Shown piece after piece: positions 1 through 28,900 of a stretch of DNA of 29,380 nt. Source of the stretch: Candidatus Woesearchaeota archaeon (GTDB lineage: Archaea > Nanobdellota > Nanobdellia > Pacearchaeales > GW2011-AR1). Position 1 is the first letter of the stretch, and the number at the start of each line of letters is the position of its first letter. Under the pieces are notes generated by a model, which made no database searches, was not told the origin of the DNA, and worked only from the letters and a program-made list of their open reading frames with translations. The translations under genes and the position numbers were made by a program. The stretch covers positions 1-29,380 of the forward strand of contig CAZHYK010000002.1 in assembly GCA_964536715.1 (NCBI GenBank), written 5' to 3'.

Positions 1-28
1 ATAAAACATAAATGCTTTTAAGTCTTGG

Positions 29-598
29 ATGTTAGATATGAATATGATAACTTATAATGATATGTATGAGGCTTTGAGAAAAGAAAGATATTCGGATGAG
101 CTTCAAGTTTTACCGAAGGATTTTGTATCCAATGTTGCAGAATATTTTAGCGATAAGAAGGAAACTATGGATGTAAAGGATGATTTTTTTTCAGAGGCTA
201 CTATAAAGAATAAGAAAAAACTTGAAAATGCTATTTCTATATTTAAGGAGTTAATTTCTAGAAGAAAGAAGAAAATTCTAAATCTTGCTTTTGTAGCTTC
301 TGAAACTGGAATTTCTAAGAGGGATTTTGCGAATATGTTGGCTTTTGAAAAGGAACTTTTTGAATCTACAGTTAGAGCTTTAGAAAAAACCGAACAAAAT
401 TTAAATGATAATATGGCTGGAGGTAAGGTGGAAGATAAATTTTTGCTAGTTAGGTTTTTAGATTCTGTAGATTCTTTTTTAAATTTGGAAGGAGAGGAAA
501 TAGGACCATTTGGAAAAGGAGAGATTGCGAATATAGATAGGGAGATTGTTGAAATCTTGGAGAAAGATGGGAAGGTTGAAATTTTAGAAGAGGATTAG
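29..598 (+). CDS. gins51: DNA replication GINS complex subunit (Gins51/GINS15 type)
   Basis: N-terminal 'Y..L..ER....LQ.LP.DF' helical A domain, central 'RRKKKILNLA', and C-terminal B domain 'VRFL....F....G...GPF.KGE...I...I..IL...G.VE'. Start could be ATG 41. Confidence 0.75.
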   Translation: MLDMNMITYNDMYEALRKERYSDELQVLPKDFVSNVAEYFSDKKETMDVKDDFFSEATIKNKKKLENAISIFKELISRRKKKILNLAFVASETGISKRDFANMLAFEKELFESTVRALEKTEQNLNDNMAGGKVEDKFLLVRFLDSVDSFLNLEGEEIGPFGKGEIANIDREIVEILEKDGKVEILEED

Positions 599-3279: not shown

Positions 3280-3602
3280 ACTCTAAAATAATTTTAACGA
3301 CGACAGAAAAAGTTCCGAAGAAAGAGATTGTGAAAATTTTAGGAGTTGTTCGAGGGAGTACAGTTAGAGCAAGAAATATCGGAAGAGATATTTCTGCAGG
3401 ATTTAAAAATATTGTCGGTGGAGAGATAAAAACCTATACTGAATTGACAGAACAATCTCGAGATGAAGCATTTAATCGGATGGTAAATCAGGCAATAGAT
3501 TTAGGTGCAGATGCCGTTGTCGGAATTAGGTTTATGACTTCGGTTGTTATGCAAGGAGCTTCTGAAATGTTGGCTTTCGGTACTGCAGTAAAATTGAAAT
3601 GA
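3276..3602 (+). CDS. ybjQ: YbjQ/UPF0145 family protein (putative heavy-metal-binding)
   Basis: Family motifs 'GVVRGSTVRARNIGRDI.AG.K.IVGGE...YTEL....R.EA..RM...A..LGADAVVG.RF' and 'GTAVK'. Confidence 0.93.
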   Translation: MNSKIILTTTEKVPKKEIVKILGVVRGSTVRARNIGRDISAGFKNIVGGEIKTYTELTEQSRDEAFNRMVNQAIDLGADAVVGIRFMTSVVMQGASEMLAFGTAVKLK

Positions 3603-3693
3603 GCCAAATGCAGCTACAGAAAAAGAGGACCTTTTTCTATCCTTCCAAAATTTACATTTTGAAAGTTTCGGTACTGCGGTAAAATTGAAGTGA
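3575..3693 (+). repeat. 28-bp direct repeat of the ybjQ 3' end (3575-3602 and 3666-3693) flanking a 63-bp spacer with a hairpin
   Basis: TTTCGGTACTGCAGTAAAATTGAAATGA vs TTTCGGTACTGCGGTAAAATTGAAGTGA (26/28). The spacer holds AGAAAAAG-aggac-CTTTTTCT. Confidence 0.9.
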
Positions 3694-3722
3694 TAAAAAT
3701 AAACTTATAGAAAACTTGTTAA

Positions 3723-7877: not shown

Positions 7878-8410
7878 TTTTTATTTTTAAGAAATTTCCA
7901 AATTATTCCTGCTACAAATCCGATAGTAACAATCAAAATAATATAGTTGGAGATAGTTTCTTTAAATGAGAATAATGCAATTTTCAGTGCATAGATTCCT
8001 GAAATAAATATTACAAAATAAAATAAATATTTGGATAAAAACTCTTCTTCATTTATATTAAATTCCTTAACTATTCCCTCTAGATATTTTCCGATAGTAA
8101 ATCCTAAAACAATCAGAATTATAGATCCTAAGAAAAATGGAATTGTCAATAAAATATTACTCAAAAAATCTGTAATGTTGGGAATGTCTAATCTAGAGAG
8201 AGATATGCTTATGAAAACTAGATATATACTCCATCTCACTAATGTAATTATCAATTCTATGAAACTAGGTCTAATCTTTTTATTAAATTCTGTTTTTTCT
8301 ATAATTTTATTTAAAAGGTAAGTTACAATCTTTCCTAGAAAAATTCCTAAAATTAAGATAGATACTGCAAAAATTATTTTTAACAAGTCACTATTAGATA
8401 AAATATCCAT
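7874..8410 (-). CDS. Conserved TM-helix membrane protein related to the MscS transmembrane region, no cytoplasmic cage
   Basis: Repeated 'A..IL.LG..LG..V..L' and 'GSII LIVLG..IG..L' helices. Confidence 0.65.
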   Translation of the reverse strand: MDILSNSDLLKIIFAVSILILGIFLGKIVTYLLNKIIEKTEFNKKIRPSFIELIITLVRWSIYLVFISISLSRLDIPNITDFLSNILLTIPFFLGSIILIVLGFTIGKYLEGIVKEFNINEEEFLSKYLFYFVIFISGIYALKIALFSFKETISNYIILIVTIGFVAGIIWKFLKNKN

Positions 8411-8440
8411 ATATGTATATAGTATGATTGGTTTAAAAGA

Positions 8441-9754
8441 TTATTGTTTTTTATCCAATCCAGAGATTTTCTCTAATTCGGTAATCATATCTCCCATTTC
8501 TTCTTTTTTTTGATCTCTGGATTTTGAAGAATTCTTCCCAACCGAATCATATATTCCTAAAACTCTTTCAGAGATTTCTTCCCAACCAAATTTTTCTGCT
8601 TGTTCAATTGCTTTTTTAGAATACTTTTCTCTTAGTCTATAATTCTCTAAAAGAACTTTTATTTTTCTTGAAAACAATGCGGTATTTAGGGGAATTACCT
8701 CTCCTGCATCGGAAACTACTTCGGGGATTCCTCCCTTGTTAGAAGTTATTACACAACATCCGCAAGCCATTGCTTCTAGGATTGTCATTCCAAATGCTTC
8801 ATATCTCGAAGGCTGCATATATATTATAGATTCATTGTATAGTTTTGCTAGTTCAGTACTTGAAATAGGTTCCCTTATCCACTTAAATCTCTCTTTGTAA
8901 GTTTCCTCTAGATATTCAAACTGTTTTGATACGTTCTTCAATGATTCTGGTGTATGGCTATTAGATGCAACAACTATAAATCTTACATTAGGGTTAGAAT
9001 CTAAGACATTTTGGGCAATTCCAGGGATGAGATCTACACCCTTCTCCAAACTGAATCTTCCCACATATAGGACTTGTTTCTTTTTTTCTATATTTTTATC
9101 TCTAAAAAATATTTTATGATCTACACCATTAGGAATAACAAAAGTTCTTCGATCTTTTATTTCATATTCTTCCATGGATTCTTCTCTAAGATGTTCGGAT
9201 ACTGAAATGACAGCATCTGCATGGTTAATTGTACTTTCCATCCATCTTGCAATTTGGAAATATTTTTTTTCCTCAGGAGTCATAAACTTAATTCTATTTT
9301 TTTCCAATGCATGAAATGTATGAACCCATGGAACTCGATTTAGATTCTTAGCAATGAATGCTCCCGCGGTTAACCAACCATGAGTATGAATAACATCAAA
9401 AGAAGACTTTTTATTTTCCTTAGAAATTTCATCTATGACTCTGTGATCGTAGATAAAATAATTCATTCGTTTATTTGCTACAGGATCTGAAATTTTAGAA
9501 TCGACTACAGTTTCTATTCCATGAATTATGATTCTTCCCTTGCCTAAATATTCTTTTTTAGTAAACTTTTTTTCAGTCTTCGTGAATATGTGAATGTCAT
9601 AACCTTTTTTGGCCAACTCTCTTGAGAGGTAATAACTATGTAATGCTACCCCATTATTACCACTTTTACCGATAGGATAATAGTAACTAACAATTCCTAT
9701 TTTGAAGGGTTGTTTAATTAACTCTTTAATTTTATAGATAAATTTATCAATCAT
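8441..9754 (-). CDS. Glycosyltransferase family 4 (GT-B)
   Basis: 'DVIHTHGW', 'VIPNGVD', 'LYVGRF..EKG', 'PSRYEAFGMTILEAMACG'. Confidence 0.95.
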   Translation of the reverse strand: MIDKFIYKIKELIKQPFKIGIVSYYYPIGKSGNNGVALHSYYLSRELAKKGYDIHIFTKTEKKFTKKEYLGKGRIIIHGIETVVDSKISDPVANKRMNYFIYDHRVIDEISKENKKSSFDVIHTHGWLTAGAFIAKNLNRVPWVHTFHALEKNRIKFMTPEEKKYFQIARWMESTINHADAVISVSEHLREESMEEYEIKDRRTFVIPNGVDHKIFFRDKNIEKKKQVLYVGRFSLEKGVDLIPGIAQNVLDSNPNVRFIVVASNSHTPESLKNVSKQFEYLEETYKERFKWIREPISSTELAKLYNESIIYMQPSRYEAFGMTILEAMACGCCVITSNKGGIPEVVSDAGEVIPLNTALFSRKIKVLLENYRLREKYSKKAIEQAEKFGWEEISERVLGIYDSVGKNSSKSRDQKKEEMGDMITELEKISGLDKKQ

Positions 9755-9890: not shown

Positions 9891-11561
9891 ATTGAAGCTA
9901 GAATGAGTGCTTTATCTAAGATAAAGTATGATGTAAGCCAATTCTAGTGAGTCAATCTTTTAGCAGTTTAGGATAGATCTTGTTTATTTGATATCGGTTA
10001 AACCTTTAGGATATTAAAGCTAATTAATAATAATTTTATTAGTTCAATTCCAGTTTATCCTGCTGGAGATTGCAGCTATTTGGTTTGGATTTAAGCATGC
10101 AAGTCTGACGCAAGTCGGCGAACGGCTCAGCAACACGTAGTTAATCTGCCCTTAGGTCAGGAATACCCTCGGGAAACTGAGGTTAATATCTGATAGGAGT
10201 TTTGTTCTGGAATGATATTACTCTGAAACTCGAGCCTAAGGATGAGACTGCGGCTGATTAGCTTGTTGGCGGGATAAAAGCCCACCAAGGCGATGATCGG
10301 TAAGGGCCCTTAGCGGGGTCGCCCTGAGAAGGAATCTGAGACACTATTCCTAGCTCTACGGAGTGCAGCAGCTGCGAATTTTCTGCAATGCGCGAAAGCG
10401 TGACAGAGCGAACCAAAGTGCTATTCTTTTTGAATAGCTTTTGTCTGCTGTAAAAAGGCAGATGAATAAGGACTGGGAAAGACCGGTGCCAGCCGCCGCG
10501 GTAATACCGGCAGTTCAAGTTGCAATCAACTTTATTGGGTCTAAAACATCCGTAGCTTGTTTAGTAAGTTTCTTGTGAAATCTGGTATCTCAAGTATCAG
10601 GCGGGCAGGAAATACTACTATACTAGAGACTGGGAGATGTAAGGAGTACATTCGAGGTAGTGGTTAAATACGTTAATCTTGGATGGACTAACAATTGGCG
10701 AAGGCACCTTACAAGAACAGGTCTGACAGTGAGGGATGAAGGCCAGGGGCGCAAAACGGATTAGATACCCGTGTAGTCCTGGCAGTAAACACTGCTCACT
10801 AAACATTGGGGCCTCTTCGGGAGGTTTCAGTGCTGAAGCGAAGGCGAAGAGTGAGCTACCTGGGAAGTATAGTCGCAAGATCGAAACTTAAAGGAATTGG
10901 CGGGGAGACACTACAACGAGTGACGCGTGCGGTTTAATTAGATTCTACACCGTGAACCTCACCAGGAGCGACAGCAGGATGAAGGTCAGTCTGAAGGGCT
11001 TACCTGACACGCTGAGCGGAGATGCATGGCCAACGTCAGCCTGTGCAGTGATGTGACCTGTTAAATCAGGTAACAGGCGAGACCCGTATGTATAATTACT
11101 ATCGAAAGAAGAACATTATACAGACTGCCTTGGTAACAAGGAGGAAGGTGCGGGCTACGTTAGGTGAGTACGTCCCTAATCCCCTGGGCTACACGCGCGC
11201 GGCAATGGCATATTCAATGAGATGCAACACCGAAAGGTGGAGCTAATCCCCTAAAGTATGTCTTAGTTCAGATTGAGGGTTGCAACCCACCCTCATGACG
11301 CTGGAATTCGTAGTAATCGTTTATTAGCAGTGAACGGTGAATATGTCCCTGTCTCTTGCACACACCGCCCATCAAACCAACCGAGTTATGCGGAGAAGAA
11401 GCTCGTCTGGGAAGATTTTTTGTATGACAAGGTAGGTTAAGTTGTCACAAGGTATCTGTAGGGGAACCTGCAGATGGATCACCTCCTATAAAATTTTAAA
11501 ATAAAATTTGTAAATTAAGTTAATATTGATAATGATTTAGAGTTGGCTTTCTAGCTTCAAT
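9891..11561 (+). other. Long-range pre-16S processing stem
   Basis: 9891-9903 ATTGAAGCTAGAA pairs perfectly with 11549-11561 TTCTAGCTTCAAT; 9935-9946 AAGCCAATTCTA pairs with 11538-11549 TAGAGTTGGCTT (one G-U). Confidence 0.8.
10047..11487 (+). rRNA. rrs: 16S rRNA (archaeal, DPANN-like), no intron
   Basis: 5' ATTCCAGTTTATCCTGCTGGA, GTGCCAGCCGCCGCGGTAA, ATTAGATACCC, AAACTTAAAGGAATTGGCGG, 3' GGATCACCTCCT; about 1440 nt. Ends approximate. Confidence 0.98.
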
Positions 11562-11621
11562 TAATTTTCTTCTTTAAGAAGAAATAAATGCTGGTGCAAG
11601 CAGACTGCAAGTACCAGAAAT

Positions 11622-11692
11622 GGGCCTGTAGTCTAGTAGTAAAACACTTCGCTTGCACCGAGGAGTCCCGGGTGCGATTCCCGGCGGGTCCA
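11622..11692 (+). tRNA. tRNA-Ala(UGC) in the 16S-23S spacer
   Basis: Cloverleaf GGGCCTG/CGGGTCC with the G3-U70 Ala determinant; anticodon loop CT-TGC-AC; no CCA. Confidence 0.93.
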
Positions 11693-11773
11693 TAACTAAT
11701 CAAGGGAACCGAGATTAGTTTGGAGTCGACGGTACTAAAAACCTCAAAGGTTTTTTCAATCGGCGGGTCCATA
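11682..11773 (+). repeat. 13-bp direct repeat of the tRNA-Ala 3' end flanking a 66-nt two-hairpin cassette
   Basis: CGGCGGGTCCATA at 11682-11694 and 11761-11773. Confidence 0.8.
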
Positions 11774-11915
11774 TAAAATCATACTCACAAAGAGATTCGA
11801 AAAAACGAATTAAAAAAATTAGGGAAGAAATTCCATGAACTATGAAGTTCGCAAGATGCATTGCGGATGGAGTTGGAGAACAAAGTAAGTGCATTTATGC
11901 ATATCATGTTCAATG

Positions 11916-14869
<2,954 letters not shown>

Positions 14870-16597: not shown

Positions 16598-17446
16598 ATG
16601 GAAGAGGAGATTAGTCAGGAAGAATTTTTAAGAAAATTAGAAATGGAATTGAAGATTTCAAAAAATTCTCCATACACTATTAAGAATTATGTTTTAAGAA
16701 ATAGGGAGTTATTCAACTTTGCTAAAAAAAATCCTTCTGAAATTATTGAAGATGATGTGAAATATTTCGTCGCAGAAAATCTTTCGGATAAAGCTGCAAG
16801 TTCAATTATTCAGTTTCTTGCAGCAATAAAATATGCCTATCTTACTATCTTGAAAAAAGATATTACTATTGGAATTAGAAGACCTAAAAAAGAAAAAAGA
16901 ATTCCTTCGGTTTTAACTAAGGAAGAAATATCTAAGTTATTAAATTCTTTCTATAGCAAGAAATCTAAACTGATGGTTTCTTTACTTTATGCTTGCGGAT
17001 TGAGAGTTTCGGAATTAGTAAACTTAAAAATTGAAGATTTATTTTTTGATGAAAAAGTGGGATATGTGAAACAAGCTAAGGGAAAAAAGGATAGGATGTT
17101 TAATATTCCTAATTTTCTTTTAGAGGATTTGAAAAAACAGGTAGAGCTTCAAAAAAAATCTAATGAAGAATTTTTATTTTCAGGAACTAATGGAAAACTT
17201 ACCGAGAGAAATATTCAAAAAATTGTTGAAAAAGCTTCTAAGAGAGTAGGACTTCAAAAAAATGTTCATTGTCATACCTTAAGACATTCTTTTGCAACTC
17301 ATCTTTTAGAACAAGGAGTTGATATAAGGAAAATTCAGGAACTTCTAGGACATGCAGACTTATCAACTACACAAATTTATACTCATATTTCTAGGGAAGA
17401 ATTGAAGAAGATTAAAAGTCCTATAGATAGCTTGGAAGTGAGTTAA
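16598..17446 (+). CDS. xerA: Tyrosine recombinase XerA (XerC/D family)
   Basis: Complete catalytic set: GLRVSE (R), KGKKDR (K), HTLRH (HxxR), LLGH (H), TQIY (Y); N-terminal SAM-like domain. Confidence 0.92.
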   Translation: MEEEISQEEFLRKLEMELKISKNSPYTIKNYVLRNRELFNFAKKNPSEIIEDDVKYFVAENLSDKAASSIIQFLAAIKYAYLTILKKDITIGIRRPKKEKRIPSVLTKEEISKLLNSFYSKKSKLMVSLLYACGLRVSELVNLKIEDLFFDEKVGYVKQAKGKKDRMFNIPNFLLEDLKKQVELQKKSNEEFLFSGTNGKLTERNIQKIVEKASKRVGLQKNVHCHTLRHSFATHLLEQGVDIRKIQELLGHADLSTTQIYTHISREELKKIKSPIDSLEVS

Positions 17447-18121: not shown

Positions 18122-18658
18122 ATGGCTTGTGAAAAATGTAATTATAGAGATAAAAAAGAGATTATAAAATTTAATACTCCCCTCTGTCAAATTTGTAATT
18201 TTTTCTCTCCAGATAATGAAGATAAGTTTATGTTTTATATAAATGAAAAAATTGACTGGAGAAATTTAGAAACATTTAGAAAGTTTGGACAGAAAATTGG
18301 TTCAAGGCAAAAATCCGGAATGATAGAAAAAGCAAGACAAGGAGAGGTGATGTCTAGAGTTGCATTAGGATACTCTTTAGTTGATAAGAAACTTGTTGAG
18401 AATGAAGATGCCTCTAAGGTTCATTCTATATTTACGAAATATTTGAATAGTGAAATTTCTTTAAATCAGCTATCTAAGAAATATGGTCTTTCACTGAATG
18501 GTTTGAAGAAAATTTTAAAAAATAGAACTTATCTAGGAGAAATAAAATTTGACGGGCAAACATTTAAGGGAGATCATAAGGCTTTAATTTCTCCAGAAAT
18601 TTTTTATGCAGTCCAGAGAAAATTGAATAATAGGAAAATTAAAATAAATATTAGTTGA
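18122..18658 (+). CDS. Zn-finger plus large-serine-recombinase DNA-binding (Recombinase) domain protein, no catalytic domain
   Basis: C3xxC6...C22xxC25; 'RQKSGM..KA..G......LGY'; 'IL.N..Y.G.......G.H..LIS.E.F..VQ..L'. Confidence 0.8.
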   Translation: MACEKCNYRDKKEIIKFNTPLCQICNFFSPDNEDKFMFYINEKIDWRNLETFRKFGQKIGSRQKSGMIEKARQGEVMSRVALGYSLVDKKLVENEDASKVHSIFTKYLNSEISLNQLSKKYGLSLNGLKKILKNRTYLGEIKFDGQTFKGDHKALISPEIFYAVQRKLNNRKIKINIS

Positions 18659-22599: not shown

Positions 22600-22656
22600 G
22601 TGATTAGGTTGAGAAATTGGTTTATAAAGTTTTTGATAAGGAATTTTAAATCTAAC

Positions 22657-24537
22657 TTAGTATTTTAAGTTAAAATTTTTAAATTCCTTTTTTAGAATTT
22701 CTATATCTTTATAACTTATTGAAACTGGTTTATTTTTATGTTCTTCAAGTGCCTTGTTTAATTCCTCAATATTAGATTCTTTTAGAGAGTTTTCTGAGAC
22801 TTTTTTCACAATTCCCTCTTCAATGATAAAAGTTTCCTTTAGGAAGAAAAGCTCCGCTTTTCTCTTCCCATTATCTATTAAAAATCTAGATTTATTTAAG
22901 GAATTTAGGTCACATCTTTGATTATACTCGATTAGAGTATCAACAATTTCCTGTCCTAGTTTTCTTGCCTGATCTACATGATTTATCTCCTTTCCAGTCA
23001 TTATATCTACTTTCTTTTTTCCCTTAGGATCTTTTTTAGTTTTTGGGTTTTTCTTTTCTTCTAAAATCCCCTTCTTAGTTTTAGCAATAAACTCTAAATT
23101 TTCCAAGAATTTTTTAGGGAATTTTCCAGTTTTTACCATTTGTTTTTCAAACTCTTTCAAAATTTCTTTTTCCTCTTTTTTATCAATGAGAGCTCCTACC
23201 ATTCCGAAGGTTTCTTCATAAACACTTTTTATTAGATTTTCTTGAACTCTTACTTCAATTTGTTTTCTTAAATCCTTTAATCTCTTGATATAATCTAAGG
23301 ATTTTTTATAAATGATATCTAGATCGGTTCCAGAGATTTTTTTTATTTTCCCATGTTCATATCCCTTGAAATATTTTATAACGACTTCGTGAAGGATGTC
23401 AGCATATTTTTGTTCTATTAATTTTTCTTTAGTTACAAAAGTTTCTTTAAATAACTCTACAGTTTCTTTGTGTGTCGGTGGAGCAAGTCCATAGAGCATC
23501 AAAACTCCTTGTGTCGGAGTTAGTACCCCCCAATAAATATCTATCATTAAGATATCTAAAAGTCTTCTATCTACACTTTCTGCAAGTCTATCTCCGGAAG
23601 ACATGAATATATCTAGAGCTTCAGGACTAGGCTTTATTTTACCCATTCTTAGAAGTTGTTTCCAAGGTAAGAAAGCTCCCCTATCATAAAGAGGAATACC
23701 ATCTCTAATGAATGTAAACATTACAGGTTGAGCGTCTTTTACAGCTTCCCAAAATTCAGTTAAAAGATAGGTTTGAACATTAAGAATATTTTTTACTCCT
23801 GCAAGTGCAGTTGCTTCTTGGATGTATTGAAAAATTATTGCTCTAAGTTTCTCTTTTAATTCTAATCTAGGCATTCGTTTTACATCGGTATCATCAATAA
23901 CTACAAAAATATCTACATCGGAAGTAGGTTTTGCCTCTCCTCTAGCCAAAGAACCAGCGAAGACATAACTTGTTACATATTTTTCAAATTTTTTTAGAAC
24001 AAGGGATTTATGTATTTGAGCAACTCTTATTCCTCCTAAAATTCCCTTATCTAAAATCGGATAAGACATTGCAAGAGCTTCGGCAACTTCAAACTTTGAA
24101 TCTAGGCAGAGATTCCACATATCAACAGGAGTCATTAAATGAACCCAAATATTAGAATCTATGGACTTGGCAATTTTAATTAATTCTAGTTTTATTTTTT
24201 GAATTTCTTTAAATTTATCTTCAGGAATAATTGTTAAAACATGAATTAATTCTTTTTTAGAATCTTCTTCAGAAATTTCATATTCTTCTTCAATTTTTTT
24301 ATTAGCTTGTTGAGGAATTAGGCCTATAGCTTCAATAAATTTAAATTTTGTTATAGATTCTTTTTTAAATTTTTCAAGATTATTTTTCATTTCATCCATT
24401 TTTTTTTGCATATCACTTTCTAGAGGATTTTGAATAGGAAGATCTCCCAGCTTAGATTTAGGAATATAACTATCAGAAATATTTTGTTCAACAGATTCTT
24501 CTCTTTTTTTATTTTTCCGAGAACTTTTTTCAACCAT
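22657..24537 (-). CDS. Nucleotidyltransferase (Pol beta/MNT-like) plus HEPN-like helical domain fusion
   Basis: 'FAGSLARGE....SDVD.FV..DD' NTase motif; helical 'DIYW...TP.Q..LM..G..PP..KE....F...FV....I...Y' HEPN-like region; degenerate NTase-like N-terminal half. Confidence 0.75.
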   Translation of the reverse strand: MVEKSSRKNKKREESVEQNISDSYIPKSKLGDLPIQNPLESDMQKKMDEMKNNLEKFKKESITKFKFIEAIGLIPQQANKKIEEEYEISEEDSKKELIHVLTIIPEDKFKEIQKIKLELIKIAKSIDSNIWVHLMTPVDMWNLCLDSKFEVAEALAMSYPILDKGILGGIRVAQIHKSLVLKKFEKYVTSYVFAGSLARGEAKPTSDVDIFVVIDDTDVKRMPRLELKEKLRAIIFQYIQEATALAGVKNILNVQTYLLTEFWEAVKDAQPVMFTFIRDGIPLYDRGAFLPWKQLLRMGKIKPSPEALDIFMSSGDRLAESVDRRLLDILMIDIYWGVLTPTQGVLMLYGLAPPTHKETVELFKETFVTKEKLIEQKYADILHEVVIKYFKGYEHGKIKKISGTDLDIIYKKSLDYIKRLKDLRKQIEVRVQENLIKSVYEETFGMVGALIDKKEEKEILKEFEKQMVKTGKFPKKFLENLEFIAKTKKGILEEKKNPKTKKDPKGKKKVDIMTGKEINHVDQARKLGQEIVDTLIEYNQRCDLNSLNKSRFLIDNGKRKAELFFLKETFIIEEGIVKKVSENSLKESNIEELNKALEEHKNKPVSISYKDIEILKKEFKNFNLKY

Positions 24538-24616
24538 AATTCTTTTAACTTTATAGAGTTTATAAAGTTTCTCTAGGATTAAAGTGGAAGTCGAAGCTTC
24601 AGATTTATAAAATCGA

Positions 24617-24879
24617 AAGGACAGAAAATTTCTTATTTTCTGTATCTAAAGAAAAGGAGTTTAAATAATCAATTTTTGTTCCTCAAAAATTCTATCTTAG
24701 TTTCTTTTGGTTAGGAGGAGCTTTTCTTTTCTAAAGAAAAGGAGTTCGTTTGGAGACAATGATTGATAAGCGAAGCGAAGAAATCCTAACTAAATTTTTC
24801 TTTATTAGGAGGAACTTTCTTTTTTCTAAAAAGAAAGGAGTTCTTCGGAAGGACAGAAAATTTCTTATTTTCTGTATCT
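24617..24879. repeat. Cluster of modular hairpin repeats (A units 24617-24647 and 24849-24879; B units about 24696-24749 and 24795-24843)
   Basis: A: identical 31-mers AAGGACAGAAAATTTCTTATTTTCTGTATCT with a 9-bp stem. B: TTAGGAGGA..CTTTTCTTT-TCT-AAAGAAAAG.GAGTTC and CTTTCTTTTT-TCT-AAAAAGAAAG. Confidence 0.9.
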
Positions 24880-24916
24880 GAGCTCTATCTCTTAGAGCGA
24901 GGGGTGAGACTCCAAC

Positions 24917-24989
24917 AGCCTCGAGTGGGAGTCGAACCCACGACCTATTGCTTACGAAGCAATTACTCTACCAACTGAGCTATCGAGGC
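24917..24989 (-). tRNA. tRNA-Thr(CGU)
   Basis: GCCTCGA/TCGAGGC acceptor, anticodon loop TT-CGT-AA, T-loop TTCGACT, U73; no CCA. Confidence 0.96.
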
Positions 24990-25592
24990 TTAGAATAAAT
25001 TCTTTTGAGGAATTTCTTTTTTAACAATTTCTATATCTTCTTCCCAGAGAGATTTTAATCTTTGATTATAAATTATTGCAGCAGGATGAAAAAGAGGAAT
25101 TAATTTTATCTCTTCTCCTTGAAAATTTAGTTCCTTTATTTTTCCGTGGAGGGAAGTAATTCCAGGTTGTTTTTCCATAATCTCTACTTCTCCATTCGAT
25201 AGAAAAAACTTTGTTGCATAGTTCCCAAGAGAACAAATTATGGAAGGTTTCATTTCTTTAATTTGCTTGACTAACCAAGGAGTGTGCATTTTTATTTCTT
25301 CAATAGAAGGATCTCTATTTTCTGGAGGACGACATTTCAGGATATTTGCAATATAGATATCTTCCAAAGAAAGTCCTACACTTTCTAAAAGTTTATCTAG
25401 GTTTTTTCCTGCTGCTCCACAAAAAGGAATTCCTTGTTCATCCTCATTTTTTCCAGGAGCTTCACCAACAAAAAGAATTCTTGCATTTATATTTCCTTTT
25501 CCTACCACGATATTTTTACAATTCTTACAAATTTCAGTTTGTTTAACTAATTCAGCTTCAGGAAAATTAAATTCCAGCTCATTTAATGCCAT
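24990..25592 (-). CDS. udg: Uracil-DNA glycosylase family 4
   Basis: 'FVGEAPG..ED..G.PF.G.AG..L', 'N.LKCRPPENRDP', 'HPA..'. Confidence 0.95.
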   Translation of the reverse strand: MALNELEFNFPEAELVKQTEICKNCKNIVVGKGNINARILFVGEAPGKNEDEQGIPFCGAAGKNLDKLLESVGLSLEDIYIANILKCRPPENRDPSIEEIKMHTPWLVKQIKEMKPSIICSLGNYATKFFLSNGEVEIMEKQPGITSLHGKIKELNFQGEEIKLIPLFHPAAIIYNQRLKSLWEEDIEIVKKEIPQKNLF

Positions 25593-25642
25593 GAGATAAT
25601 AATGGTTAAACTATTTAAATAACTTTTTACAATAAATTTTAT

Positions 25643-25715
25643 GCTCCTATAGTTCAGCTGGATAGAATACAGGGTTGCGGTCTCTGTGACCGAGGTTCAA
25701 GTCCTCGTAGGGGCA
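25643..25715 (+). tRNA. tRNA-Arg(GCG)
   Basis: GCTCCTA/TAGGGGC acceptor, anticodon loop TT-GCG-GT, T-loop TTCAAGT; no CCA. Confidence 0.94.
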
Positions 25716-25979
25716 TTAATTCTTACCTCCCTTTACTTTCCCCCAATTATCCTCTAAAAAAGAAAACTCATAATTTTGAAGATTAATATTTCCAAGAATA
25801 GAAAGATTATCAAAAAGTTCTTTAGGAAGAGTTCTATTTTCGTTAAAATAACTCTTCAATGTTGAATATGGAATGTCAAACCCTCTTTCAATTAGATTTC
25901 TCAGCGAGGGGCAATTTGCATTTTCTAGAACTTCCTTAAAGAATCTTCTTTGTTGTCCTTTGTGAAATTTAACTCTCAT
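25716..25979 (-). CDS. Small HTH-like hypothetical protein ending in NWGKVKGGK
   Basis: Helical 'SLR.L....DIPYSTLK.Y..E.R.LP..LF..L' pattern; its stop abuts the tRNA-Arg 3' end. Confidence 0.65.
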   Translation of the reverse strand: MRVKFHKGQQRRFFKEVLENANCPSLRNLIERGFDIPYSTLKSYFNENRTLPKELFDNLSILGNINLQNYEFSFLEDNWGKVKGGKN

Positions 25980-26073
25980 AATTTTAAATATATTTCAGAG
26001 TTTATAAATTTCACTGCGCAACCATACCATGCAAAACTTTATAAAGGAAAAATTTGATTTAATTGAAACTAAA

Positions 26074-26169
26074 GTTTTCCTAGTTTAGACGACGTGTCAA
26101 GAAAACTTAAGGTTGTCTACGCAGAACGCAGTGGGCTAACTTAAGGGAAAAGTGACGTGTTAGGAAAAC
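26074..26169 (+). ncRNA. Candidate structured RNA / 5' leader of the rpl44e operon
   Basis: Four nested helices: 26074-82/26161-69, 26092-99/26153-60, 26106-11/26140-45, 26115-20/26131-36. G-U pairs work only on the + strand. TATA-like site at about 26038. Confidence 0.45.
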
Positions 26170-26187
26170 CGTAGGTTGTCATACACA

Positions 26188-26496
26188 ATGAAAGTTCCAA
26201 AGAAAACAAAACGATATTGTCCTTATTGTGACAAAGTAACTGAACAGAAGATAAAACAAGTTAGCACCGGAGGAAAGAAAGGTGCACTTACTCGAGGAAC
26301 TAAGATTAGGGCTAAACTTAGAGGTAAAAATAGGGGGATGGGAAATTTAGGAAGATATAGTAAAAAACCGGTTACAAAATTTAAGATGAAAACAAAGACT
26401 ACTAAAAAAGCGGCATTTTTATATACATGTTCTGTTTGTAATAAATCTAAACCTAAATCAAAAGGAATCCGAACAGGAAAATTGGTAATGGAATAA
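26188..26496 (+). CDS. rpl44e: 50S ribosomal protein eL42 (L44e)
   Basis: 'MK.PK....YCP.C', 'KTTKK....Y.C..C.K'. ATG 26188 preferred over TTG 26176. Confidence 0.95.
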   Translation: MKVPKKTKRYCPYCDKVTEQKIKQVSTGGKKGALTRGTKIRAKLRGKNRGMGNLGRYSKKPVTKFKMKTKTTKKAAFLYTCSVCNKSKPKSKGIRTGKLVME

Positions 26497-26497
26497 A

Positions 26498-27181
26498 ATG
26501 GCAATAAAGGAAAAACCTACAAGAAAAGCAACAGTAAAGAAGAAATTTATTCAGATAGAGGTTCCAGCCTTAAATGAGGAAATTAGCGCTCTTGGAACTA
26601 TTGAAAGTTTAAATGGAAGAATGATAAAACTGGACCTCTCTAGAAAGTTAAGGGGAAGAAGTTTAGAAGCTACGTTTTTAGTAGGAATAGAGGATGAAAA
26701 ACTAGTTGCTTATCCCAGAAGATTAAAATTAACTAGACAGTATATTTCAAGAATGATGAGAAAGAGAATCAATTATGTTGAGGACTCCTTTGAAGCCTCC
26801 TGTAAAGATATTAGTTGTATTGTAAAACCATTTTTATTAACGAGAAAAAAAGTTTCCAGAGCTATAAGAAATAACTTGAGAAAAGCAACTAAAGAATTTA
26901 TTCTAGATTATATAAAGGAGAAAAATTATCTTGATATTTGTGAAAATATTCTCTACTCCGAACTTCAAAAAGAACTCTCCCTTAAACTTAAGAAAATCTA
27001 TCCATTATCATTCTGTGAGATAAGAGTTTTTGAGACTAAGAATTTAGGCAGTGCAGATAAGACAAGAAGTGAAAAAATAGTTAGGGAAGAAATTTTAGAA
27101 AATGAAGAAGAATCCAATGAAGAACCCGAAGATATAGAAAATAATTCTAAAGATGAATTGACTGAAGAAAAGGAGGAGTAA
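26498..27181 (+). CDS. rps3ae: 30S ribosomal protein eS1 (S3Ae) with acidic tail
   Basis: 'GR.I..DL', 'Y..R..RK....V.D', 'KKIYPL..CEIR'. Confidence 0.88.
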   Translation: MAIKEKPTRKATVKKKFIQIEVPALNEEISALGTIESLNGRMIKLDLSRKLRGRSLEATFLVGIEDEKLVAYPRRLKLTRQYISRMMRKRINYVEDSFEASCKDISCIVKPFLLTRKKVSRAIRNNLRKATKEFILDYIKEKNYLDICENILYSELQKELSLKLKKIYPLSFCEIRVFETKNLGSADKTRSEKIVREEILENEEESNEEPEDIENNSKDELTEEKEE

Positions 27182-27717
27182 TGACAATCCAACAATGTTT
27201 AGTTCTTGTAAAGCCGGATGGTTTAGTAAAATCTATTACAGGAGATATTATTTCTGCACTTTCTGAATCTAGATTAAAAATTGTAGGTTCTAAAATTGTT
27301 TCTGTAAAAAGAGAGCTTGCAGAAAAACACTATTCCGGATTAAAAGAAGATCTTATCAACAAGTTTGGAGAAGAAAAAGGCATTCAAACTTTTGAAAATA
27401 TAATGGAATACATCCAAGGAAAATTTCATACCAATAGAGTAATGGCCTTGGTTTATCATGGAGAGAATGCAATTTCTAAGATAAGAGAAATTGTCGGATC
27501 TACAAACCCTGAAAGTGCAAATCCTATAAGTATTAGGGGAAAATATGGAAGAATAAATTCCTCTACAAATGTTTTTGAAACAGCAGTTCATGCATCCGAT
27601 TCTGAAGAGTCTGCAAAAAGAGAGATTCAACTCTGGTTTTCTCCAGACGAATTGACCGAGATAATTTATCCTATAGAAAAAATTAATGAGACAATTGAAA
27701 GAAATTCTTGGAAATAA
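27181..27717 (+). CDS. ndk: Nucleoside diphosphate kinase
   Basis: 'LVKPDG', 'R..VG.TNP..A...SIRG.YG', catalytic 'VHASDS'. Confidence 0.96.
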   Translation: MTIQQCLVLVKPDGLVKSITGDIISALSESRLKIVGSKIVSVKRELAEKHYSGLKEDLINKFGEEKGIQTFENIMEYIQGKFHTNRVMALVYHGENAISKIREIVGSTNPESANPISIRGKYGRINSSTNVFETAVHASDSEESAKREIQLWFSPDELTEIIYPIEKINETIERNSWK

Positions 27718-27753
27718 TAACTCTTTTAAACCCTGCTTCTTAAAATCTATTGT

Positions 27754-27826
27754 GCCTGCATAGCTCAGTTGATAGAGCAATTGCCTTGTAAGCAATAGGT
27801 CGGGGGTTTGACTCCCTCTGCAGGCT
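27754..27826 (+). tRNA. tRNA-Thr(UGU)
   Basis: GCCTGCA/TGCAGGC acceptor, anticodon loop CT-TGT-AA, U73; non-canonical D/T loops; no CCA. Confidence 0.93.
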
Positions 27827-27846
27827 TCAACGAAATGTTAAGAGTC

Positions 27847-28110
27847 TTAATCCTTCTTTCTCTTAATCCAAGAAATAATTAACATTACAATTATAAAAAG
27901 AATTATTATAAAGATAATCCAATAAGTAGGAGTTATTTTTGGAATATTTCTTTCAGATTCATCTATAACATCTGAATTAATTACACTTCCTACAATTCCT
28001 CCATAATTTGATGAATTTACCTTTGAAAGAATAATTGTACTGGCTACAGCCATAATAAGAACTACAGCTAAAAATATTTTCGCCGGATTGAATTCTCCTT
28101 GCTTTTTCAT
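27847..28110 (-). CDS. Small hypothetical membrane protein (N- and C-terminal TM helices)
   Basis: Two hydrophobic segments; TATA-like site at about 28133 on the minus strand. Confidence 0.65.
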   Translation of the reverse strand: MKKQGEFNPAKIFLAVVLIMAVASTIILSKVNSSNYGGIVGSVINSDVIDESERNIPKITPTYWIIFIIILFIIVMLIISWIKRKKD

Positions 28111-28254
28111 TTTTTTAATAAGTACTTAGACTTTATAAGTTTTTTGAATGGTGGTTTCTTTAGGATTAGATTGACAATTTTAGTAAAACTAGAATATTCT
28201 TATAATAAAGAAATTGAAATATTGAAGATAGATCATATCTCACTTCGTTCGATA

Positions 28255-28427
28255 TAATATGGGCCCGCCAGTCTTAAAAAATTACTTTGTAATTTTGGGA
28301 ACTTCAACGAACTATCTTTCTTTAGAAAAGAAAGATTTCTCCCAATCAAAGAAACTAAGTTAGTTGAAGTGAATCAAAGAACTTCTTTCTTTTTAGAAAA
28401 AAGAAAGTTTCTTCTAATAAAGAAAAA
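28255..28427. repeat. Second cluster of B-type hairpin repeats (inverted relative to 24.7 kb) plus a tRNA-3'-end-like 17-mer
   Basis: 28379-28427 is the reverse complement of 24795-24843 (46/49). 28306-28359 resembles the reverse complement of 24696-24749. 28255-28271 is the reverse complement of 28768-28784 (16/17). Confidence 0.88.
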
Positions 28428-28478
28428 CCTATATTAGATTTTGAGAAATAAAATTATTGAAATTTCGATTCCAAACTA

Positions 28479-28549
28479 TGCGCGGACCGGGAATCGAACC
28501 CGGGACACAACCTTGGCAAGGTCATATTATACCACTTAACCATCCACGC
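28479..28549 (-). tRNA. tRNA-Gly(GCC)
   Basis: GCGTGGA/TCCGCGC acceptor, anticodon loop TT-GCC-AA, T-loop TTCGATT; no CCA. Confidence 0.96.
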
Positions 28550-28625
28550 TTACATAATATTTATTCCTTAGATATTTAAAAAGATATTGATTATTCTCTC
28601 TATCCAACTTCAAAATCCAAGAAGT

Positions 28626-28655
28626 TAGACATAATGTTAAACCCTCTCGTTTACA
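28626..28655 (+). repeat. Degenerate copy of the tRNA-Val D-arm and anticodon 5' half
   Basis: TAGACATAATGTTAAACCCTCTCGTTTACA vs tRNA TAGGC-TAATGGTAGACCCTCTCGTTTACA; the last 15 nt are identical. Confidence 0.75.
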
Positions 28656-28708
28656 AGATATTTTGTTCATCTAAAGATTTATAAAACACAATTTTCTATA
28701 TATTCTAT

Positions 28709-28779
28709 GGGCCTATAGGCTAATGGTAGACCCTCTCGTTTACACCGAGATGGCCCAGGTTCGATTCCTGGTGGGCCCA
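28709..28779 (+). tRNA. tRNA-Val(UAC)
   Basis: GGGCCTA/TGGGCCC acceptor, anticodon loop TT-TAC-AC, T-loop TTCGATT; no CCA. Confidence 0.95.
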
Positions 28780-28900
28780 TATTACATTGAAATAAATGAT
28801 ATGTTTTTTTAAGAAGGATTATTTAAATTATTCTTTATAAAAACCTAAAAGTTTATAAATCCCTTATAACTCACTAAATGGTGATTATTCGGTGATTGAA

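Follow-up and report, generated by a model that had tools for sequence, protein, structure and literature searches.

Modular hairpin cassettes associated with tRNA genes in Woesearchaeota- and Pacearchaeota-type archaea

This report concerns short non-coding hairpin repeats, here called units A and B and cassettes X, H1, and H2, in a stretch of 29,380 nucleotides (nt) assigned to a Candidatus Woesearchaeota archaeon (assembly GCA_964536715.1, contig CAZHYK010000002.1, positions 1 to 29,380 of the forward strand); this whole stretch is referred to below as the window. B, A/X, H1, and H2 recur as modules in varied orders and orientations, within unrelated flanks and in several genomes. The window is archaeal and AT-rich, and carries a 16S-tRNA-Ala-23S operon (10047-14819) together with five further tRNA genes. 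The repeats form two clusters, both downstream of minus-strand tRNA genes: cluster 1 occupies the gap between tRNA-Thr(CGT) and the start of a gene for a 626-amino-acid (aa) protein (22657-24537, minus strand), and cluster 2 lies between tRNA-Gly(GCC) and an open reading frame (ORF) of 87 aa. No copy in the window lies inside a tRNA gene. Related loci in other genomes and in metagenomes are designated by L and a number. The features of cluster 1, listed from the tRNA gene outward, and of a related cassette elsewhere in the window are as follows.

24916-24990, minus strand: intact tRNA-Thr(CGT) (ARAGORN, Rfam), directly after whose 3' end cluster 1 starts
24905-24915, minus strand: trailer of tRNA-Thr, GTTGGAGTCTCA, the end of the duplicated "core" ahead of X; its junction, ...TCA followed by CCC(C/T)TC, is also present in L225 and L095
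24880-24904, minus strand: left part of the X cassette, CCCCTC and the hairpin GCTCTA-AGAGA-TAGAGC, then TCAGAT
24845-24879, minus strand: unit A, copy 2, a 35-nt repeat with its hairpin at 24853-24875 (repeat, hairpin, and pairing analyses)
24791-24843, minus strand: unit B2, stem CTTTCTTTTT/AAAAAGAAAG, covariance-model match of 66 bits
24770-24776, plus strand: GCGAAGC mini-hairpin in the spacer between B1 and B2, read from the sequence; GAA-triloop hairpins recur in other modules
24697-24747, minus strand: unit B1, stem CTTTTCTTT/AAAGAAAAG, covariance-model match of 73 bits, 51/51 identical to copies in L038, L212, and L232
24645-24661, minus strand: half B unit fused to unit A, a junction type as in the nested insertions of L231 and L225
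24613-24647, minus strand: unit A, copy 1, hairpin at 24621-24643 (repeat and hairpin analyses)
24596-24620, minus strand: right part of X, CCTTTC, the TATA-box-like hairpin GATTT-TAT-AAATC, and TGAAGC; counterpart CCTTCCGATTTTACAAATCTGAAGC in L225, covarying versions at 3641-3665 and in L219
24584-24595, minus strand: decayed duplicate of the tRNA-Thr T-loop and T-stem, TTCGACTTCCAC (in the gene, TTCGACTCCCAC); L225 (39 nt) and L095 (35 nt) retain intact counterparts
3575-3714, plus strand: X-like cassette (3603-3665, with an A-type hairpin at 3616-3640) behind a YbjQ gene, flanked by a 28-nt repeat of the 3' end of that gene (3575-3602 and 3666-3693)

Unit A is a 28-mer, GGACAGAAAATTTCTTATTTTCTGTATC, present exactly at 24619-24646 and 24851-24878, where shuffled sequences lead one to expect no match; the repeat reaches 35 nt in the two copies listed above, at 97% identity, and each copy forms a 9-bp stem, ACAGAAAAT/ATTTTCTGT. 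The diverged inverted copy that the preliminary description of this DNA had placed near 3611-3646 corresponds to the A-type hairpin at 3616-3640, ATAGAAAAAG/CTTTTTCTGT, on the minus strand and with one G-T pair. Unit A is part of the X cassette, which comprises 78 nt in the order CCCCTC, hairpin 1, TCAGAT, A hairpin, CCTTYC, a small TATA-like hairpin, and TGAAGC. On one side of X stands an intact tRNA with a trailer of 12-19 nt, and on the other a direct duplicate starting at T54 of that same tRNA. Hairpin 1 covaries, as GCTCTA/TAGAGC in cluster 1, ATTCTA/TAGAAT in L095, and GCTTTA/TAAAGC in L225. Cluster 1 can be read as an X cassette at tRNA-Thr(CGT) that would have been expanded by B2, B1, and a truncated B, which stand between the two copies of A.

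Unit B was recovered in two ways. A degenerate pattern, for which no match is expected by chance, finds four copies (24711-24747 and 24805-24843 on the minus strand, 28309-28345 and 28379-28417 on the plus strand), and a covariance model delimits the full units as 24697-24747 and 24791-24843 (minus), and 28309-28359 and 28379-28431 (plus). The half unit (24645-24661) corresponds to the right half of B1, with 17/17 identity to 24730-24746. The two A copies, the four B copies, and the half unit that were originally listed are real at their positions, and far beyond chance. B2 and B4 share 94% identity over 51 nt in inverted orientation. Three subtypes of B can be told apart by their stems (CTTTTCTTT, CTTTCTTTTT, and ATCTTTCTTT), each of them nearly unchanged across several loci and genomes. 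In a model-based alignment, 92% of the cells of B are paired versus 82% in shuffles, and two-sided changes occur in five of ten pairs (26 cells versus 8.5; none of 500 shuffles reached this, and all slid controls collapse). Two-sided changes likewise occur in four of the eight pairs of the A stem, which upholds the covariation that had been claimed for both units.

The preliminary description had also held that the order of the units differs between the clusters and took them for shuffled modules on that ground; this did not hold, as a B1-like unit followed by a B2-like unit, at equal spacing, is found in both clusters, with every unit individually inverted (inverted repeats I2 and I3). This arrangement, with unit order kept and each unit separately inverted, also led us to reject cluster 2 as a simple inverted segmental duplication of tRNA-Thr and its flank. 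An ORF of 43 aa (24750-24881) that spans B2 and the second A copy was rejected as coding sequence, since the same modules occur elsewhere in other orders and in both orientations.

Cluster 2 and its surroundings contain the following features.

28479-28549, minus strand: intact tRNA-Gly(GCC) without an intron; its ortholog in L095 has a B-unit intron
28379-28431, plus strand: unit B4, of the B2 type, covariance-model match of 59.6 bits
28371-28378, minus strand: T-loop remnant TTTGATTC, directly before H1, in the position of AGGTTCGAATC in L212, L216, L226, and L232
28301-28370, minus strand: H1 cassette, an 8-bp stem ACTTCAAC/GTTGAAGT around B3 (28309-28359), whose orientation is opposite to that in the H1 copies of L212, L226, and L232
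28272-28300, minus strand: H2 hairpin, TCCC-AAAATTAC-AAA-GTAATTTT-TTAAGA, found at nine loci, two of which are the window's own sequence or its ortholog
28237-28271, minus strand: leftover tRNA-Val-like 3' end (CTGGCGGGCCCA) with trailer, an inverted repeat (I8; 35 nt, 80%) of 28768-28802
28600-28660, plus strand: decayed tRNA-Val 5' fragment, the hairpin CCAACTTCAAAATCCAAGAAGTTAG and then D-loop to anticodon loop, upstream of the intact tRNA-Val (28708-28780)

The stem ACTTCAAC (28301-28308)/GTTGAAGT (28363-28370) does enclose B3 as had been noted and, like the GCGAAGC mini-hairpin, can be read directly from the sequence. In general, H1 consists of ACTTCAAY, a B unit, and RTTGAAGT, and the stem of H2 exists in three covarying versions (AAAATTAC/GTAATTTT, AAAAACTT/AAGTTTTT, and AAAAAAC/GTTTTTT). 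Where H1 and H2 are inserted together, an intact tRNA is followed by a short spacer, the T-loop remnant AGGTTCGAATC, H1, H2, a leftover acceptor 3' strand corresponding to the tRNA upstream, and the duplicated trailer. This architecture is present at tRNA-Ile (L232), tRNA-Glu (L212), and tRNA-Leu (L216), in L226 and L018, and in cluster 2 of the window; B is inverted within H1 in the window and in L018. Cluster 2 may be pictured as a leftover tRNA-Val 3' end that would have been split by H1(B3) and H2, with B4 alongside.

Two side observations concern the tRNA-Val remnants and their trailers. The 3' remnant stands as an inverted repeat about 500 nt from the real tRNA-Val 3' end in the window and as a direct repeat just downstream of it in L095, which suggests an inversion of the segment with tRNA-Gly and B in the window's lineage. 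In addition, a trailer hairpin motif, ATATYGARYGAAR..GAGATAT, often followed by GATACTTTGCAAATTTATTTG, is common to different tRNA genes and genomes (window 28237-28259 and 28781-28802; L038 at about 830-870; L212; L225); no known function was found for it.

Copies outside the window were sought by pattern and by model. A first pattern scan of a genome collection with one genome per species returned 85 chance matches and five true ones, and missed loop and arm variants; the true copies came only from metagenome-assembled genomes (MAGs) of DPANN archaea, two of Woesearchaeota (L018; L030 and L038) and one of Pacearchaeota (L079). A refined pattern yielded ten more true loci in metagenomes of the Joint Genome Institute (JGI), and the covariance model recognizes 29 strong B copies in 16 loci, in several genomes. 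The alignment of the MAG loci from the first scan to the window is limited to the repeat units; their flanks do not align. Since further copies, covariation between copies, and, as described below, differing occupancy of sites were all found, the dispersed repeat family proposed in the preliminary description stands. The B1 copy in L038, from the Woesearchaeota MAG CAZJUG01, is identical to that of the window at 51/51 positions, whereas the two versions of the 626-aa protein share only 80% identity. In run X1, the JGI contig L225 is covered to the same depth (25-33) as the window (27-30), which makes it probable that several JGI loci belong to the same genome as the window. The repeats exceed their flanks in contig depth by a factor of 4-8, and the units are where short contigs break off. 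One contig with a joint of 24646 to 24845, skipping 198 nt, was considered as a deletion allele and set aside: only 30 nt fit on one side, and its two tandem A hairpins probably belong to another locus.

Other recurrent sequences were seen in these loci. A module GGTTCGAACACCAAGGAGGTGCGAGTACCTCTTCGAGGTCAC, with an ACCTC-GAA/TTC-GAGGT hairpin, lies downstream of tRNA-Leu and tRNA-His (L038, 657-706 and 4538-4569; L018, 39-88). In two genomes (L079, 3931-3981; L229, 3977-4027), 1-2 nt separate the end of a B unit from the start codon of a membrane-protein gene, and a flank of AGGAGG or GGGAGG upstream of the B hairpin means that the hairpin could bring a Shine-Dalgarno-like sequence near the AUG.

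The clustering 3' of tRNA genes that had been noted in the window extends to the wider set of loci. Fifteen of 26 non-redundant B copies are linked to a tRNA gene (14 at most 450 nt downstream and one inside; none upstream), versus a chance expectation of 6.6%, which is the share of the searched sequence lying that close downstream of a tRNA gene. Three further copies adjoin tRNA 3' remnants at contig ends, and some cassettes follow immediately on protein genes that also have a duplicated 3' end. The copy inside a tRNA gene is that of L095 (9630-9786, MAG CAZJUG01), where the ortholog of the window's tRNA-Gly(GCC) has an 84-nt intron according to ARAGORN. This insert starts with a B unit and lies at the canonical site 37/38, and its excision leaves a normal tRNA; a B unit can therefore be a tRNA intron. 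The predicted fold of the precursor shows an extended anticodon stem, an internal loop of 8 and 9 nt, and an inner helix, that is, no strict 3-4-3 bulge-helix-bulge motif, though a relaxed form is possible. No strict motif of this type was found in the H1/H2 inserts in T-loop remnants or in the nested inserts that were inspected.

Three features go beyond the preliminary description: units lie within leftover pieces of tRNA genes, they are nested in the loops of other units, and in the relative just described one of them is a tRNA intron. Many inserts are flanked by direct duplications, 20-65 nt long, of the 3' end of a tRNA or protein gene. At tRNA-Gly(CCC) of L225, a 78-nt X cassette stands between perfect 39-nt repeats, and at tRNA-Gly(GCC) of L095, X stands between 35-nt repeats; at tRNA-Ile of L225, a 144-nt unit of core plus insert is repeated 2.3 times; and the flanking repeats in L216, L232, and L212 measure 20-22 nt, with a 7-nt microhomology (CATTCAA) at one duplication junction in L232. 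In L219, the 3' end of a 765-aa gene and its terminator hairpin are present in triplicate, with cassettes between the copies. Fragments of tRNA 5' ends with a duplicated promoter lie upstream of tRNA-Glu (two loci), tRNA-Ser, and tRNA-Val, and each is interrupted, after position 8 or 13, by an A-type cassette of two hairpins; the counterpart of the tRNA-Val fragment in L095 keeps the acceptor strand and has the A-type hairpin after position 13. The positions of insertion within leftover tRNA fragments are 8/9, 13/14, 53/54, and 61/62, all of them in loops. The same holds for nesting: in L225, H1(B3) and an A hairpin interrupt a B2 hairpin precisely at its loop, and in L231 a B3 hairpin is interrupted in this way. 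The half B unit fused to the first A copy in the window is the same kind of junction.

As in an integrated element at a tRNA gene, a direct repeat of the tRNA 3' part flanks the insert (39, 35, and 20-22 nt, and in decayed form the 12 nt at 24584-24595), which raises the question of whether the cassettes are scars of integrase-mediated integration. Plasmids or viruses entering tRNA genes would then have duplicated a 3' (or 5') attachment (att) core, and deletions would have left the hairpin ends. The repeats do span from the T-loop to the 3' end and trailer, like typical att cores, the tRNA-Ile locus of L225 is a tandem core-insert-core-insert-core array, and the tRNA-Thr of Caldiarchaeum subterraneum provides a precedent, as the integration and recombination of mobile DNA, a 1.8-kb element, were held responsible for the disruption of its gene, the gain of an intron, and the scattering of fragments (Sugahara et al., 2012; PMC3293823). 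The window itself contains a tyrosine recombinase gene (16598-17446, 282 aa, Xer-sized). However, that gene lies 7 kb from the clusters and is syntenic in relatives, so that it is probably a housekeeping Xer-type recombinase. Furthermore, X cassettes of 78-81 nt with the same borders recur between cores at three different tRNA genes, and also downstream of a protein gene, and independent deletions would not yield identical borders at unrelated genes; one attP core cannot match all targets, and H1 and H2 split the duplicated core instead of sitting between cores. The inserts are 9-330 nt long and non-coding, unlike kb-sized integrase-carrying elements. Searches of IMG/VR with specific B and X patterns gave no match, a purine-rich pattern gave no true copy among the matches listed there, and blastn against phage and plasmid records found no module, so that no carrier virus or plasmid was seen. 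We regard an origin as integration scars as quite unlikely. As to integrons, attC ends follow RYYYAAC ... GTTRRRY; the H1 arms CTTCAAC/GTTGAAG match this consensus in part, with a deviating outermost base and no ORFs between the sites, and in place of an IntI integrase the window has the Xer-sized protein as its only tyrosine recombinase.

The preliminary description had compared the units to REP/BIME-like elements or elements derived from IS200/605 ends. In bacteria, repetitive extragenic palindromic (REP) sequences, bacterial interspersed mosaic elements (BIMEs), and REPINs are short extragenic palindromes that form clustered mosaics at gene 3' ends in both orientations, and their cognate REP-associated tyrosine transposase (RAYT), a Y1 HUH enzyme, is typically flanked by repeats. 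The cassettes are similar in being short extragenic palindromes with conserved flanks, clustered and in both orientations, which can be targets of further insertion; insertion into the loops of hairpins would be in keeping with an enzyme working on single-stranded DNA, such as a RAYT or, for miniatures of insertion sequence (IS) ends, TnpA, and stable GAA-triloop hairpins are frequent. Neither the 20 ORFs of the window that were tested nor 20 ORFs adjacent to clusters encode an HUH/Y1 enzyme (RAYT/TnpA), TnpB, another transposase, or an element-borne integrase, and the precomputed Pfam lists next to the clusters of ten related loci contain no transposase. Neither the window nor the related loci yielded a full-length tnpA/tnpB parent sharing the end hairpins. 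The left junctions vary (..AATC, ..ATTC, ..TTTTT, and ..AGAT) and thus show no constant target of 4-5 nt, whereas IS200/IS605 elements insert 3' of such a target without duplicating it; X-type inserts are flanked by duplications of 28-39 nt, and long flanking duplications are not known to be a feature of IS200/IS605 elements. Unlike REP/BIME sequences, moreover, the cassettes have an archaeal host, an association with tRNA fragments, and an intron state. The matching HUH transposase that had been proposed as a check did not turn up in the ORFs and Pfam lists examined, and mobilization by a RAYT or by TnpA is highly improbable.

Comparison with relatives shows that the same sites are differently occupied. 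The closest of them, L092, is taken from a 617-kb contig with about 94-96% nucleotide identity to the window. At the H1 site, the window has B3; L092, in which B4 is also present, has a different, 30-nt hairpin in place of the 71-nt H1(B3), and L095 has an H1 hairpin with a 16-nt loop and no B. More distant relatives (L233, L234, and L236; 72-79% protein identity) keep the neighborhood of tRNA-Gly, tRNA-Val, and the nucleotidyltransferase gene and have neither cassettes (no B) nor tRNA remnants. The spacer behind an Ogg glycosylase gene differs in length as well: L234 has 42 nt, L095 has 135 nt that include one decayed B, and L231 has 398 nt that include a cluster of multiple cassettes.

Taken together, these features lead us to favor, with moderate confidence, the view that A and B are modules of lineage-specific non-coding hairpin cassettes of about 50-170 nt in Woesearchaeota/Pacearchaeota-type DPANN, which spread or recombine as DNA into hairpin loops and gene ends, above all those of tRNA genes. 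A more specific proposal, which we offer tentatively as a possibility, is that they are undescribed non-autonomous cassettes that insert in DNA or RNA hairpin loops (tRNA D-, anticodon-, and T-loops, terminators, and each other), duplicate the adjacent gene end, and become a spliceable tRNA intron when at 37/38. Insertion would be coupled to the long target duplication, and the long flanking duplications suggest staggered cleavage or template switching at hairpins. Insertion into a working tRNA gene would presumably be lethal unless the splicing machinery removes the insert, which would explain why cassettes are found in leftover fragments and once as a 37/38 intron. The mover might be an enzyme encoded elsewhere or a host recombination or replication function, and the T-rich hairpins and the TATA-like hairpin may secondarily serve as terminators or as a promoter.

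Several points weigh against spreading as DNA. Apart from the lack of a transposase in the window and beside the clusters, no recent insertion with a clean empty site was found within one population. The figure of 98% paired cells for 19 A-type hairpins is biased because most of these hairpins were chosen for the alignment by a hairpin finder, and the "compensatory" signal of B is partly a C/G register shift inside T/A-rich arms. The loci compared were picked for carrying B, and the copy counts apply to those loci. The near-identity of each B subtype across genomes could equally reflect a constrained RNA. In addition, cluster 1 differs between the window and L092 by one mismatch in about 355 nt; in the gene beside it, the difference is 6-7% overall and 15% at third codon positions, and the 18 nt just upstream of that ORF differ at eight positions. 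Such near-invariance suggests that a host function is under selection or that gene conversion has been at work, and speaks against junk.

These last points bear on the reading that the units are host-functional RNA or DNA elements, such as terminators of tRNA trailers or gene 3' ends (oligo-T, bidirectional), processing signals, or small RNAs, which were duplicated with gene ends and are not mobile. Beyond the near-invariance of cluster 1 beside synonymous sites that differ by about 15%, this reading accommodates the covarying stems, the T4-T6 runs on both strands of the B arms, and the frequent position of B next to stop or start codons; every tRNA-linked copy lies downstream of the tRNA, and B is tolerated, presumably spliced as RNA, in tRNA-Gly. 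However, relatives with the same tRNA genes are entirely without the elements, different cassettes stand at the same site in close relatives, and units occur in both orientations relative to the adjacent tRNA, nest mutually, and split leftover tRNA fragments. The units match no Rfam family at gathering or E-value thresholds and are not C/D box or H/ACA RNAs; a scan for bacterial-type terminators found nothing at the units, whose stems are AT-rich, and metatranscriptome contigs of the same studies gave only tRNA-like matches of 20 nt. We consider a purely host-functional, immobile origin rather unlikely, and continue with the view of cassettes that spread as DNA.

The cassettes relate to MITE/REP-like repeats, where MITE stands for miniature inverted-repeat transposable element, and to transposed archaeal tRNA introns, both of which are already known. 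H1 resembles a classical MITE in its 8-bp termini, in its presence in both orientations between the same flanks, and in being non-coding and multi-copy; unlike in a classical MITE, there is no short target duplication of fixed length at the H1/H2 junctions, and no related autonomous transposon was found in the scanned ORFs. In Thermoproteales, closely similar short sequences lie at different positions of different tRNA genes, which implies intron-like movement (Fujishima et al., 2010, Mol Biol Evol 27:2233, as cited in PMC4390854). As in those introns, one member of the cassette family is an actual tRNA intron; unlike them, most cassettes lie outside working tRNA genes (in trailers, fragments, and loops, and behind protein genes), no strict bulge-helix-bulge was found, and the lineage is DPANN. 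With the Caldiarchaeum locus they share an intact tRNA gene that has its own fragment nearby, whereas the Caldiarchaeum element encodes a recombinase, and the cassettes, as inserts of 50-330 nt, are non-coding, modular, and present at many tRNA genes. A MITE-like C/D box small RNA element of Pyrobaculum calidifontis is likewise non-coding, multi-copy, lineage-specific, modular, and without an identified transposase (Lui et al., 2018; PMC6009581). Unlike this guide-like element, the present units lack C/D boxes and are associated with the ends of tRNA genes. Yeast mitochondrial GC clusters are palindromic and nest in one another. They are described in PMC4478555 as very short mobile DNAs without coding capacity in intergenic DNA; they are GC-rich, whereas the cassettes are AT-rich, they are unrelated in sequence and host, and they are not known to be linked to tRNA fragments or introns. 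Literature searches turned up no earlier account of cassettes like these from Woesearchaeota or Pacearchaeota.

The question of how tRNA genes in archaea are interrupted, gain introns, are split, or leave fragments is a long-standing one that has been addressed mainly through intron similarity in Thermoproteales and through the one Caldiarchaeum locus. Here, the same modules occur side by side as a tRNA intron, inserted in tRNA fragments, nested, and at sites that are empty, differently filled, or multiply filled, and because these states coexist in relatives, the process is directly comparable across natural strains. If the view of spreading cassettes is true, it would provide a present-day, traceable route to archaeal tRNA introns and fragmented tRNA genes in a lineage that is common in landfill, wastewater, and digester metagenomes. 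The cassettes also add a repeat family to DPANN genomes, which are usually regarded as streamlined. For annotation, caution is needed, as tRNA flanks in this lineage hold pseudo-tRNA pieces and repeats that break assemblies.

As for the wider setting, the named genomes closest to the window are "Candidatus Woesearchaeota" MAGs, consistent with DPANN, and the window sequence is also present in landfill, wastewater, and digester metagenomes. The 626-aa protein beside cluster 1 has a nucleotidyltransferase (NTP_transf_2/Polbeta) domain, and its nearest named homologs are from Pacearchaeota, Nanoarchaeota, and Woesearchaeota MAGs. Among the candidates scored, it has 4939 full-length homologs at E <= 1e-10, mostly from DPANN-type archaea and none with an assigned function. 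A look-up of the exact protein of the neighboring gene returned an identical contig and no polymorphism.

L092 and L094 differ from the window at further places. The 127 nt at 28110-28236, upstream of the 87-aa membrane ORF, are 100% identical in L092, whereas the intergenic stretches 28431-28478 and 28550-28707 are strongly diverged. L092 has two ORFs that are absent from the window, one of 262 aa between tRNA-Arg and the uracil-DNA glycosylase gene and one of 154 aa behind the nucleotidyltransferase gene; the regions concerned are 8118-8906 and 11878-12342 of L092 versus about 25592-25642 and 22600-22657 of the window, and the differences adjoin a tRNA gene or a gene end. In L094 (1-306, versus window 24539-24560), the nucleotidyltransferase protein is 99% identical to that of the window, yet the promoter variant and a substitution in the first A copy are of the L092 type, and this mixture indicates mosaic recombination between strains at the locus. 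Finally, for an ORF of 178 aa at 18122-18658, the sole match (33 bits) is to the "Recombinase" domain found in large serine recombinases; the ORF has no catalytic domain, and its synteny is conserved beside a Fic-domain gene and the Xer-like recombinase gene.

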